A DNA stretch of 14,433 nucleotides from Bdellovibrio sp. GTDB taxonomy: Bacteria; Bdellovibrionota; Bdellovibrionia; Bdellovibrionales; Bdellovibrionaceae. Below the pieces are notes generated by a model. That model was not told the DNA's origin, made no database searches, and was given only the letters and a program-made list of their open reading frames with translations. Shown piece by piece: positions 2,881 to 14,304 of the stretch (positions are counted from its first letter, which is position 1; every line of letters begins with the position of its first letter). A program made the position numbers and the translations under genes. The DNA is taken from assembly GCA_046318155.1 (NCBI GenBank), contig JBKCUU010000013.1, positions 1 to 14,433 of the forward strand, read 5' to 3'.

Positions 2881-3267
2881 ATGACTGATAAAATTCTGAT
2901 TTGCGACGATGCTGGCTTTGTGCGCGAAATCTTGCGTCAGGCTCTTTTAGAGCTCGGCTACAACGTCGTTGGCGAAGCTTGTGACGGCAATGAAGCCGTT
3001 GTCGAGTGTCTTCGCCTGAAGCCCGACATTGTGTTCTTGGATCTTGTCTTACCGCTTAAAAACGGCGCCGAGGCAGCCAAAGACATCTTGGCCCAACTGC
3101 CCGGTACCATCGTGATTGCGATGTCCACGGCGCAAGAAGACTTTCTGCAAGAGCGTGCAAGACAAGCCGGCTGTTCGGACTGGCTCGCGAAGCCATTTTC
3201 TAAGTCGCAGTTAAAAGAAATGCTCTCACGATTTTCAAACCGCACACTTGAGGTTCAAAATGGATGA
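2881..3267 (+). CDS. cheY: Single-domain response regulator (CheY-like receiver), 128 aa
   Basis: KILICDD acidic pocket, VFLDLVLP phosphoacceptor Asp, AMST and LAKPF motifs; no output domain. Confidence 0.9.
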   Translation: MTDKILICDDAGFVREILRQALLELGYNVVGEACDGNEAVVECLRLKPDIVFLDLVLPLKNGAEAAKDILAQLPGTIVIAMSTAQEDFLQERARQAGCSDWLAKPFSKSQLKEMLSRFSNRTLEVQNG

Positions 3268-3583
3268 GTTGAAATTTGTTTTGAAGGGTTTTGTGATTGC
3301 CATACTCGTGACCTTGGGACTGCAAATTAAAGTGGGATCTGAAACTCTTGAAATGAAGTCAGATCGTTTGTTGCACGAGTCTTCAATTGGACAGTTTTTG
3401 AATCATACGGCAAGCGGAGCCGCGTTGGCGCTTAAGCAGGGAAGTCACGCGGTCTCTAAGATGATGGCCGAGGTTTTGGGTTCTTCAAAAGAAGTGAAGA
3501 ACGACCAGAAATGGAAAGCCCAGACAAAGCTCAGAGCTCTTCCCCCACAGGAGGAAGAGACCGCTTCTGAGGATTATCTCTGA
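3260..3583 (+). CDS. Hypothetical membrane-anchored protein, 107 aa (start corrected to ATG 3260)
   Basis: GAGGT RBS at 3250-3254; ATG overlaps the cheY stop region (ATGGATGA); N-terminal hydrophobic segment FVLKGFVIAILVTLGL; acidic C-terminus. Confidence 0.75.
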   Translation: MDELKFVLKGFVIAILVTLGLQIKVGSETLEMKSDRLLHESSIGQFLNHTASGAALALKQGSHAVSKMMAEVLGSSKEVKNDQKWKAQTKLRALPPQEEETASEDYL

Positions 3584-3753
3584 GTTCGTACTTTTTGAGC
3601 AGGCGCGGGACGTACGGAAGTTCCTGAGACAGGCTTTTCGTTTGTTTTTGCAAATAAGCCCGCACCGCTACGCTTGAAGCAGTCTTTTTCTTCTTTTGCC
3701 TGAGCCACCGTTGTCGCCGATAGAATGAAAGCCAATAAGATCAATTTTTTCAT
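3574..3753 (-). CDS. Small secreted peptide, 59 aa (not in ORF track): MKKLILLAFILSATTVAQA-KEEKDCFKRSGAGLFAKTNEKPVSGTSVRPAPAQKVRTQR
   Basis: ATG at 3753 preceded by GAGGA RBS (CGAGGATTAT-ATG); classic Sec signal (MKK, hydrophobic core, AQA cleavage); TAA at 3576-3574; upstream sigma54-like promoter. Confidence 0.85.
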   Translation of the reverse strand: MKKLILLAFILSATTVAQAKEEKDCFKRSGAGLFAKTNEKPVSGTSVRPAPAQKVRTQR

Positions 3754-3793
3754 ATAATCCTCGCTTCTAGAGAAACACTCTAGTCTCTTCTAA

Positions 3794-3810
3794 TGCGAAG
3801 CTTATGCCAG
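3794..3810 (-). promoter_or_regulatory. Candidate sigma54 (RpoN) -24/-12 promoter for the 59-aa peptide gene
   Basis: Minus strand CTGGCATAAGCTTCGCA: TGGCA with exact GG-N10-GC spacing; predicted start ~3783, about 30 nt before the ATG. Confidence 0.6.
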
Positions 3811-3927
3811 TGGCTCCCAGTGCCGTCGTCCATGGGCTGACTCAATAGTAGACGCCGTGAGGGCTCAGACCAAAGACCTTGCTTCTTGGCTGTCGAAGTC
3901 TTGAACGCTTGTCGAGCCTCTCGGGTC

Positions 3928-3956
3928 AAAAAAAAGAGCTCCCGGGAGGAGCTCTT
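3928..3956 (-). terminator. Rho-independent terminator ending the Tad-RHS-hit operon
   Basis: Minus strand AAGAGCTCC-TCCCG-GGAGCTCTT followed by a T run, 40 nt after the stop at 3996. Confidence 0.85.
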
Positions 3957-3965
3957 GAGAAAAAC

Positions 3966-3980
3966 GTCTCAATTTAAGAC
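3966..3980. promoter_or_regulatory. Palindromic site GTCTCA-ATT-TAAGAC (one mismatch to GTCTCA-N3-TGAGAC)
   Basis: Near copy of the perfect palindrome at 14290-14304; both are intergenic. Confidence 0.45.
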
Positions 3981-3995
3981 AACTGCCTTTGTTGG

Positions 3996-4325
3996 TTACG
4001 GTCCTTGTTCGAAACCACCGGCGCGCCCTGTTCCTGAGGGAGCTGCGGGTGCAGAGCCAGGGGCAAGTCTGTTGCTATCCTCGAAAATGCCCACTGGAGA
4101 ACGGCGGCATTCCAAACACTCGGGCTCTTTGCCAGGCTTTTCTTTGATGATCTGCGCGTACTGGGGGTTCGATTTGGGAGTCGCGTAGTTATCGATATAC
4201 TGACCATCAAAGTTATCCAAGTTGGGATCACGGTCGTTGTAGGTCGCCTGTGCTTGTGCGCCAATAACTCCAAGCGTAATTCCGAGCACTGTCATCATGA
4301 GCAAAGTCAATTTCTTCCAAGTCAT
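3996..4325 (-). CDS. hit: Hit/Bd0108-like small secreted, likely disordered protein, 109 aa (start corrected to ATG 4325)
   Basis: AGGGAG RBS before ATG 4325; signal peptide ending AQA; low-complexity P/G/A/N/D-rich mature part with CLEC (C70/C73) and GTGR near the C-terminus, features I recall from Bd0108 (CREC, GTGR); lies directly downstream of the RHS gene as in the HD100 hit locus. Confidence 0.75.
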   Translation of the reverse strand: MTWKKLTLLMMTVLGITLGVIGAQAQATYNDRDPNLDNFDGQYIDNYATPKSNPQYAQIIKEKPGKEPECLECRRSPVGIFEDSNRLAPGSAPAAPSGTGRAGGFEQGP

Positions 4326-4335
4326 TGTAGACTCC

Positions 4336-5994
4336 CTAATTATAAACTTCGGCCGTAGCCGGTGAGAGAATGTCGAGCAGATTGTTAAAAGTACTGGCGA
4401 CCTGCATGGCGACGGTGGGTCCTTCATTACTCGAGACTTTGTCGATTTCGCCACTGGATTTGTAGGCCACTTTGATCGTGCCCAATCCCGGCCGGTGAAC
4501 GATTGAAGGCTTGCCGAAGCGGTCTTCGTATTCGATCCGTACGACCTTTTTGGCGTGATCGGTAATCGAAGCGATTCGACCACGGTTATCATAAGTCATC
4601 TGCACTTTTTGCCCATCGGTATTTGCTGCAAAAGTTAGATTGCCTTTCTTATCGTAGCGAAACTCGGTCTTTTTCGTCTGCGCGACCTTGCCCTTGTCAT
4701 TCATGAAGGCGACAACCACGCTGGCAACTTTGCGAGAGCCTTTATCGTACTCGTAAACAAAGTTTGCAAGAGAGGTCGACTTTTTCTTCACCTGCCCGTT
4801 GGGAAAATATTCAAAGCCCGCCATGTCGTTATTTCGACGAATCGAGAGTGGTTTGCCAAAAACTTCGTGGTAGGTGATATCCGTGATATTGCCATTGATT
4901 GTCGAAGCCACACGTTGCAAGTAAACTTGGCCATCTTTACGAGTTTTAAACCAGAACTCGTGCTTACTTTCATTCACAACTTCTTTGCCACAGGTCTTTT
5001 TGACATTGGCCCAGTAGTGCATCTTGGGCTGGCTGTCCGAAAACTCGTACTTGTACGCCTCGACGCATTTTTGCCGGTCTGTAAAAGTCGTAACCCAGTC
5101 ATTTTTCTTATCGTAAGTCAGAGCCAAAAAGGTGTTGTCGGGATATCCAGCCTTGGTCAAGTTGTGCAACTCATCGTATTCGTAAGTGTACGTGTTGCCC
5201 CAACCATTTTTGACCGAAGCCAAGTCATCAAGATTAGCGTACTTGTAATCAGCGTTGATTCCATTGGGTCCAACGATCGATTTGACTTTTTTGTTAGTGT
5301 AAAACTTAAAATTGAGACGGCGGCCATTGTTGTCGACAATTTCACGAATGACATCTTTTTCGTAATCAAACTTTAAGAAATTTCCGTTTTTGTCATAGAG
5401 ATGAGTCAGCCGACCTTCGTTCGAAAAGCGCATTGAGCTTGAATCAGTCAGGTTGCGAGTATAGTAGCCTTTGGCGAAGATGATGTTCTCGACTTCGCGG
5501 CCATTGGCGAAAAACTGCGTTCCGTCTTTAACCGGAATCGCCACTTTGTATTCAGACGCATACTGCGCTCGCATGTCGTGATCTGACACCATTTGCTCGC
5601 TCAGTGCCTTGAGTTGACGGTCTTCGAATTTCTTTGAATCCTTCATTCGAGCCGTGATTTGACCAATTGTTCGATCAATCTCCTTGCGACCAAATTCGCG
5701 GGGATAGTAAAACGTCTCTTGGCCTGCGCCGCACTCGACGAGCTTGAGGTTTCCCTCAGCTGTTTTTTCGATTTTGGTTTCAAAATCTGAACACCAGCCG
5801 AAGCCAAAAATTCCGTTCAACAATGAACGGCTATTGTAGGTGCGAGAGATTTTGAGTTCGTATCCGGTTCCGGGCACTTCAATGTCAACCCAGGTATTTG
5901 AATAGTTGGCATTTTTCATGTCGACGATGGCGTGCGCCGACGTCGATGCAAGAAGCCCACCCATGAGCAGGGCGGAGAGAGCGAGAGTTTTCAT
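4336..5994 (-). CDS. Secreted DUF6531 + YD-repeat (RHS/WapA-like) protein, Bd0109-like, 552 aa
   Basis: Signal peptide ending AHA; DUF6531-like VDMKNANY...ISRTYNS...GIFGFGW; multiple YD repeats (YEYDELHNLT, FRYDKKGNLT, MTYDNRGRIASITD); GAGG RBS. Confidence 0.9.
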   Translation of the reverse strand: MKTLALSALLMGGLLASTSAHAIVDMKNANYSNTWVDIEVPGTGYELKISRTYNSRSLLNGIFGFGWCSDFETKIEKTAEGNLKLVECGAGQETFYYPREFGRKEIDRTIGQITARMKDSKKFEDRQLKALSEQMVSDHDMRAQYASEYKVAIPVKDGTQFFANGREVENIIFAKGYYTRNLTDSSSMRFSNEGRLTHLYDKNGNFLKFDYEKDVIREIVDNNGRRLNFKFYTNKKVKSIVGPNGINADYKYANLDDLASVKNGWGNTYTYEYDELHNLTKAGYPDNTFLALTYDKKNDWVTTFTDRQKCVEAYKYEFSDSQPKMHYWANVKKTCGKEVVNESKHEFWFKTRKDGQVYLQRVASTINGNITDITYHEVFGKPLSIRRNNDMAGFEYFPNGQVKKKSTSLANFVYEYDKGSRKVASVVVAFMNDKGKVAQTKKTEFRYDKKGNLTFAANTDGQKVQMTYDNRGRIASITDHAKKVVRIEYEDRFGKPSIVHRPGLGTIKVAYKSSGEIDKVSSNEGPTVAMQVASTFNNLLDILSPATAEVYN

Positions 5995-14289: not shown

Positions 14290-14304
14290 GTCTCAAAATG
14301 AGAC
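14290..14304. promoter_or_regulatory. Perfect palindrome GTCTCA-AAA-TGAGAC upstream of the flp promoter
   Basis: 6-3-6 dyad read directly; near copy at 3966-3980. Confidence 0.5.

Follow-up and report, generated by a model that had tools for sequence, protein, structure and literature searches.

A conserved 59-codon gene beside Bdellovibrio hit and its probable identity with a published small RNA

A published 'small non-coding RNA' of the Bdellovibrio hit locus is very probably the mRNA of a small protein with a predicted signal peptide. The window analysed here, a stretch of 14,433 nucleotides from a Bdellovibrio sp., carries next to its hit-like gene a 59-codon open reading frame that we call mini-Hit. 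What is new is the correction of the published non-coding assignment and the recognition of mini-Hit as a Hit-type variant, the function of which we infer. A conserved, Hit-like product with predicted export, encoded at the position of an 'sRNA' that rises upon loss of Hit, points to a likely overlooked feedback peptide of the switch between hunting and free growth.

The mini-Hit gene and its locus

The genes of the window are arranged as in the hit locus of B. bacteriovorus, with a minus-strand Tad/Flp pilus operon followed by an RHS gene, a gene for a 109-aa protein and the 59-codon frame. The HD100 order and coordinates used for this comparison were those of a supplement row of PMC3627812. 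Both small frames lie on the minus strand where the original prediction had placed them, at 3996-4325 (109 aa) and 3574-3753 (59 aa). Both products have Sec-type N-termini ending in AQA, as judged by inspection and our own heuristic, and the segments that had been quoted from the two proteins are present. The features of this part of the window are as follows.

2881..3267, plus strand: stand-alone CheY-like receiver gene, bd0102-like, used as a synteny marker
3248..3583, plus strand: convergent bd0103-like gene, 111 aa, forming the far edge of the mini-Hit slot
3574..3753, minus strand: small gene mini-Hit, 59 aa, with predicted signal peptide (1-19), single Cys25, GLFAKTN at 32-38 and a basic low-complexity tail
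3758..3762, minus strand: Shine-Dalgarno site GAGGA of mini-Hit, from the sequence
3794..3809, minus strand: predicted sigma-54 -24/-12 promoter, TGGCAT-N5-TCGCA (GG-N10-GC), the box being kept in 79 of 81 orthologous upstream regions
3839..3853, no strand assigned: weak dyad copy GTCTCA-N3-TGAGAC with three mismatches
3924..3956 (stem 3934-3956), minus strand: intrinsic terminator-like hairpin with U-run, 3' of the Hit-slot gene
3966..3980, no strand assigned: dyad GTCTCA-N3-TGAGAC with one mismatch, some 156 nt ahead of the sigma-54 box
3996..4325, minus strand: Hit (Bd0108)-slot gene, 109 aa, with predicted signal peptide, DPN, CxxC (C70, C73), GIFEDSN at 79-85 and a Gly-rich tail
4336..5994, minus strand: Bd0109-like RHS/YD-repeat protein, 552 aa, with DUF6531 and RHS repeats

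Mini-Hit and the convergent bd0103-like gene share 10 nt at the 3' end of mini-Hit. On its other side, the terminator-like hairpin would separate mini-Hit transcription from the pilus-RHS-hit operon. A short hairpin at 3767-3783 lies in the predicted 5' leader of mini-Hit, directly before the ribosome site. For the Bd0109-like protein, structure prediction gave a confident partial Rhs beta-sheet fold (pLDDT 86.7). Elsewhere on the minus strand, matches under the cut-off were obtained for an exported 173-aa protein (574-1095, weak metallopeptidase matches) and for a 541-aa protein (1170-2795, weak beta-barrel and FlgT_C matches).

Conservation was assessed in a sample of 168 loci around RHS orthologues, 136 of them distinct and 117 with at least 1 kb of downstream sequence. 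The scan for open reading frames was heuristic and combined an ATG, a ribosome site and a signal peptide, the last judged by inspection and our own heuristic without SignalP. It found a frame in the Hit slot in 98 of the 117 loci, and a second small frame with signal peptide and ribosome site, in the mini-Hit slot, in 81. The mini-Hit slot was filled in 70 of the 75 loci with the CheY-like gene in view and in 11 of the 42 without it. Where both frames were found, mini-Hit started 139-347 nt past the Hit-slot stop. Ten shuffles gave between 0 and 2 filled slots per 117 loci, and scanning antisense to the RHS gene gave none (0/117). A reverse-strand count was dropped as a control because it mostly captured the real bd0103-like gene, and the shuffles and the RHS antisense strand were used instead. 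The small frame is therefore conserved at orthologous loci, and its description as a paralog-like secreted partner of Hit is supported by the conserved slot and by a shared core of cysteine and short motif (see below), with secretion as a prediction.

Mini-Hit is not universal, since the scan found no frame in 36 of the 117 loci and the profile search, with a profile built partly from the genomes searched, recovered the family in 34 of 61 genomes sampled from the order. In the Bdellovibrio-type genus that includes genome G010, the profile matched in 44 of 44 genomes. In two deep-branching loci (L135 and L139), the CheY-like gene lies within about 400 nt of the RHS gene, leaving no room for mini-Hit.

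A single cysteine, a feature not used for picking the frames, was present in 76 of the 81 mini-Hit proteins, so that the CxxC pair is not a mini-Hit feature. This cysteine is the sole invariant residue of the family. For mini-Hit, dN/dS pooled from 14 pairs of closely related sequences was 0.17 (of 16 codon pairs, two were excluded as non-independent), the same ratio as for hit, with 87, 51 and 245 changes at codon positions 1, 2 and 3, respectively. By part, over 13 pairs, the ratio was 0.18 for the signal peptide, 0.12 for the core and 0.19 for the tail. We regard it as nearly certain that the 59-codon frame is a real protein-coding gene.

A paralog search of the window's genome, which is 95% complete, found one mini-Hit copy only. 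A look-alike on contig C47 was taken as a chance match, lying antisense inside a 672-codon gene. Family searches returned nothing from Pfam, only sub-threshold signal-peptide matches from NCBIfam, and Atlas hits of 0.82 or less.

The frame had also been thought unannotated and missed by gene callers, which is true only of the old Bd-numbered annotation; the supplement rows of PMC3627812 show no gene at this position. Protein sets of NCBI and JGI/IMG contain the exact 59-aa sequence, and WP_038450492.1, a 'hypothetical protein', is its B. bacteriovorus counterpart. In RefSeq, the HD100 hypothetical gene between bd0108 and bd0103 is BD_RS00505 (PMC5941755, consulted in part and the only paper found with this tag). 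All 29 database homologues are unnamed or hypothetical and have no Pfam domain. The accessible 2025 proteome supplements list Bd0108 and Bd0109, and the RefSeq identifiers of mini-Hit were searched for there and not found, which probably reflects the use of the Bd-numbered UniProt set as database. In the openly available literature covered, no paper was found that ties mini-Hit to Hit, sigma-54 or the sRNA. This comparison extended to the available portions of PMC5430801, PMC12075869, PMC13689555, PMC3627812, PMC11323537 and PMC11870529, and further of PMC12428579, PMC6561027, PMC13147790, PMC12546842 and bioRxiv 10.1101/2025.09.24.678257.

The hit-locus RNA, the predicted mini-Hit promoter and additional copies

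The hit-locus 'small non-coding RNA' was reported as a transcript of 261 nt at HD100 96455-96716 (PMC3818213). According to the available passages of the same paper, its level is high when bd0108 is deleted or mutated at the start codon and slightly lower in a 42-bp deletion; wild type in attack phase and the host-independent HID2, with intact bd0108, have low levels. Because HID2 is host-independent and yet low in transcript, the rise tracks loss of Hit and not growth state. An indirect effect could account for the rise in bd0108 mutants.

Both RT-PCR primers for this RNA bind within the mini-Hit frame. They match locus L167 exactly, L168 with two mismatches and L058 (the named record) with three, all at synonymous third positions. 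The published HD100 coordinates, together with the 189-nt spacing found in L058, L167 and L168, place the frame at 96483-96683 and thus within the published interval. This interval is not more stably folded than shuffled sequence (z -0.12), and an Rfam search of it gave no match at gathering level. The sequence evidence strongly favors the identification of the published 'sRNA' with the mini-Hit mRNA, although the RT-PCR passages give no strand.

A sigma-54 -24/-12 box was found 40-86 nt before the mini-Hit ATG in 79 of the 81 loci, compared with 1.1% of shuffles, and had not been used for picking the frames. The box at 3794..3809 is the only match to the GG-N10-GC pattern in the window, and the genome encodes RpoN and 11 strong sigma-54 activator domains. 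Mini-Hit is predicted to have its own sigma-54 promoter, from which transcription would start near 3783.

The dyad GTCTCA-N3-TGAGAC, which lies close to many of the mini-Hit promoters, was considered as a sigma-54 activator site specific to mini-Hit, and this was not supported, as the dyad is genome-wide and not tied to sigma-54 boxes. It occurs at 48 sites in the window's genome (9 perfect, 39 with one mismatch), where about 6 are expected by arithmetic, and 3 of the 48 are near a sigma-54 box against a background of 3%. The sites are mostly intergenic and often ahead of genes for exported proteins; one is also found upstream of the flp/Tad operon, and others precede genes that, from their sequence, we take to resemble fliA and a flagellin. 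Within the window, sites with at most one mismatch are at 14290-14304 and 3966-3980. The dyad is likely the site of a global regulator.

An additional copy of the small family occurs in many genomes, in tandem or dispersed. A tandem third copy was found in 15 loci (among L053-L055, L065, L066, L068, L071, L142 and, in part, L151-L165), with a sigma-54 box before 15 of 15. A sixteenth candidate, the 'third ORF' of L074, was dropped as it has two cysteines and no sigma-54 box. Dispersed copies were examined at 20 loci, 13 of which have gene and sigma-54 box by pattern (L174, L175, L180-L182, L184-L187 and L189-L192). The gene beside most third copies presumably encodes a membrane transporter of EamA-like appearance. 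Profile matches of the small family off the RHS contig (G012:C258, G019:C119, G020:C49, G023:C126, G026:C172 and G035:C95) are in genera outside that of G010 and are possibly moved copies. A 174-bp insert was interpreted as horizontal transfer in PMC5941755, as far as that paper was available. Its length corresponds to 58 codons and its position to that of the tandem third copy, so that, judging from the other loci, it is probably the tandem form.

Likeness of mini-Hit to Hit

The 109-aa protein is the Hit counterpart by its position directly behind the bd0109 orthologue and by its signal peptide, DPN and CxxC. Its original designation as Hit holds for position and features but not for the family model: it gave no match to NF053838 (hit_Bd0108, NCBIfam) at E<=1, against scores of 102 bits for P0011 and 125 bits for the L009 protein. 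A hidden Markov model built without its own genus nevertheless ranks the protein first in its genome (E 5e-5). Among the small proteins, P0002, P0004 and three others had no NF053838 match either. Throughout the order, the Hit slot immediately after the RHS gene is occupied by a gene for a small secreted protein with a Cys pair (98 of 117 loci). The literature, in the parts consulted, calls bd0108 absent from many strains or limited to some species; Hit-slot genes reach far past the species in which BLAST finds Bd0108.

Direct comparison of the mature 109-aa and 59-aa proteins gave a pairwise score of 33, which 166 of 5000 shuffles also reach and which is weak evidence alone. A profile alignment including the signal peptides gave P 96%. 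Profiles of the mature parts only aligned the same 19 columns with P 17-33% and E 0.0005-0.0014, a score reached in 0 of 60 column shuffles; with larger sets, the mature-only values were P 3.9% and E 0.011, with 0 of 100 shuffles. All three alignments pair the cysteine and the motif marked by the original prediction. The register proposed for the shared motif was thus right, but the exact pattern, C-x(1,2)-R-S-x2-G-[IL]-F-x2-[ST]-N, is not a family motif, as its only matches, one among 66 small proteins and one among 63 of the Hit slot, are the window's own. Common to mini-Hit and Hit family-wide is a core Cys...[LM]-x-[DAK]-x-T-[NTA], which is weak, yet above all shuffles at the family level.

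The motif learned on the mini-Hit proteins was [GDSK]-[LM]-F-[AKD]-[NS]-T-[NA]-P, and the one learned independently on Hit was R-L-[GN]-D-[DN]-T-[TN], in the same register. The mini-Hit motif scores the Hit-slot proteins at 4.68, compared with 1.93 +/- 0.30 (maximum 2.95) in 300 shuffles, and its best site there is mostly about 7 residues past the second cysteine. Even a loosened pattern is found in only 34 of 66 small proteins and 32 of 63 from the Hit slot. The Bd0108-type protein of L167 has the motif at residues 73-79. The classic 42-bp deletion that confers host independence removes Hit residues 73-86 (PMC4267844, in part), and the shared core lies within this segment.

Of 26 independent tree pairs, 19 showed Hit and mini-Hit from the same genome to be closer to each other than when swapped, 6 showed the opposite and 1 was a tie (sign p 0.015); the reversed control gave 10 versus 16. 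The excess was not significant for the motif only (13 vs 10 pairs) or for the last five residues only (12 vs 12). The motif-only test was weakened because the PSSM took the wrong site in some Hit proteins (e.g. L001, L167). The motif contains R-H in all three genes of one lineage, namely hit, mini-Hit and an unlinked third copy, with different codons around it. Although this is a single event, it would suit a shared partner better than recent gene conversion.

The likeness concerns the rear half of Hit, with which mini-Hit probably shares its origin. A DP[NT]-type front-half motif is present in 3 of 81 mini-Hit compared with 55 of 98 Hit-slot proteins. Charges differ as well, with +5 (median) for mature mini-Hit, +11 for the RHS protein and -3 for the Hit front half. 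Rhs cores end in DPxG, which the DP[NT] of Hit (residues 33-35 of the product of 3996-4325) resembles, and Bd0109 has about half the length of the Rhs cores matched. Hit might descend from a detached Rhs tail. A C-terminal G-x-[RQK], resembling a recognition tag, is frequent in both families (51 of the 98 Hit-slot proteins and 37 of the 81 mini-Hit proteins have G at -3), while the window's own mini-Hit ends differently.

Proposed role and comparison with known systems

Bd0108 is disordered, and Bd0109 binds about three Hit molecules weakly, with a Kd of 45 uM (PMC4267844, in the passages available). By NMR, the main Bd0109 contact comprises Bd0108 residues 24-66, with residues 32-40 conserved, and a moderate signal loss is seen for 74-85; the authors suspect a further Bd0108 partner. 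As mini-Hit is without most of this NMR-mapped front half, Hit can be read as a tether plus a signalling motif and mini-Hit as the motif alone. The front half would tether Hit weakly to Bd0109, while the rear motif would be sensed by a putative envelope receptor that holds a putative sigma-54 activator off. When the Hit motif is absent, the activator would fire and the cell would export the mini-peptide of about 40 residues, which would occupy the same receptor as a feedback ligand. It would be no substitute for Hit because it is without the Bd0109-binding half. Induction upon loss of Hit or its motif, and not by host-independent growth itself, fits such a feedback loop.

The reading of mini-Hit as a motif-only Hit copy, made from a sigma-54 promoter when the motif of Hit is missing and acting through a putative receptor, is the one that we prefer, and we advance it tentatively. 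Slightly more speculative is its extension to the whole switch, which may be run by two to three exported disordered peptides sharing motif and receptor, namely RHS-tethered Hit and one or two short sigma-54-induced forms, with motifs co-changing within a lineage. The 42-bp deletion would then act via removal of the motif, and the 'sRNA' would be the message of the feedback ligand.

The original prediction had the peptide bind Bd0109 at the site of Hit, competing with it or mimicking it. Such competition appears unlikely to us. The genes adjoin, binding of about three Hit molecules is weak, residues 56-66 around the CxxC fall within the contact and 74-85 lose some signal (PMC4267844, in part), and Capeness et al., in the passages seen, propose the residues of the 42-bp deletion as part of the interface; however, mini-Hit is without the part that makes the main contact (as the 3 of 81 and 55 of 98 proteins with DP[NT]-type motif indicate), and mature mini-Hit and the RHS protein are both basic, whereas the Hit front half is acidic. 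A somewhat less likely alternative makes mini-Hit an antagonist, a motif-only decoy that would titrate the receptor of Hit and lock the growth state by positive feedback. This would agree with the attack-phase enrichment of bd0108 (2010 vs 357 RPKM in the part of the PMC3627812 supplement consulted) at a time when the RNA is low, with the high RNA upon Hit loss, and with the failure of high RNA levels to restore prey dependence in bd0108 mutants. It sits poorly with HID2, which is host-independent at low transcript, so that the rise follows the loss of Hit.

We consider it improbable that the function lies in the cysteine, as a disulfide dimer, as a mixed disulfide with the Hit CxxC or an RHS cysteine, or as a redox partner. 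The invariance of this residue would be accounted for, Bd0108 contains a disulfide between C56 and C59 and gives disulfide ladders upon over-production (PMC4267844, in part), and Cys310 and Cys335 are invariant in the RHS family. Nevertheless, the conserved T-containing motif and the same-genome likeness to the motif of Hit would be left unexplained, and the RHS protein has an even number of these cysteines, which may pair with each other. Release as a prey effector or cell-to-cell signal, whether by the Tad pilus or as cargo of the RHS protein, is more doubtful still: the peptide is small, basic, fast-evolving and multi-copy and is encoded beside a Tad operon and an Rhs-fold protein, but little of its transcript is present in attack phase, the time at which cells would stock an effector, and family searches gave no effector match. 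Least credible, in our view, is a regulatory RNA with an incidental frame, or a lipoprotein product. PMC3818213, in the passages available, names the transcript non-coding, and two cluster members bear the automatic UniProt label 'Lipoprotein'. An RNA-only role conflicts with the dN/dS of 0.17 and the third-position excess, with the synonymous primer changes and with the lack of an RNA structure signal, and the lipoprotein reading was rejected as a lipobox-like sequence precedes the cysteine in only 2 of 81 proteins. A dual role of the transcript as RNA and mRNA is possible.

A 2025 review (PMC12428579, in part) calls the way in which hit mutations free Bdellovibrio from prey dependence uncharacterised. 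The lone published downstream readout of Hit, an 'sRNA', is recast here as the likely mRNA of a Hit-like peptide, which points to a sigma-54 activator for the missing connection between envelope and transcription and singles out Hit residues 73-80. The mini-Hit promoter would serve as a direct reporter of Hit signalling and as a handle for finding the receptor.

Among known systems, BD_RS00505/WP_038450492.1 is the same gene by position, for which PMC5941755, in the passages available, reports neither a function nor a family or promoter, and no connection with Hit or the sRNA. The 261-nt hit-locus RNA is in the same place and its primers are inside the frame; it was published as non-coding, whereas we find a ribosome site, a signal peptide, purifying selection and no special fold. 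Like Bd0108 (Hit) of HD100, the protein of NF053838, mini-Hit has a signal peptide, a low-complexity mature part and the same locus, and both have a cysteine followed by the core motif about 6-7 residues on and a Gly near the C-terminus. Mini-Hit differs in having about 40 instead of about 80 mature residues, one cysteine instead of CxxC, a basic instead of an acidic character, no DP[NT] front half and no NF053838 match; it also has its own predicted sigma-54 promoter, whereas hit is co-transcribed with bd0109. The PilA-PilS-PilR system of Pseudomonas exerts ligand-sensing feedback on a sigma-54 promoter, and there, too, loss of an envelope protein raises transcription from such a promoter. 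At the hit locus, however, the regulated gene is a paralog and not the gene of the ligand itself, and sensor and activator are putative.
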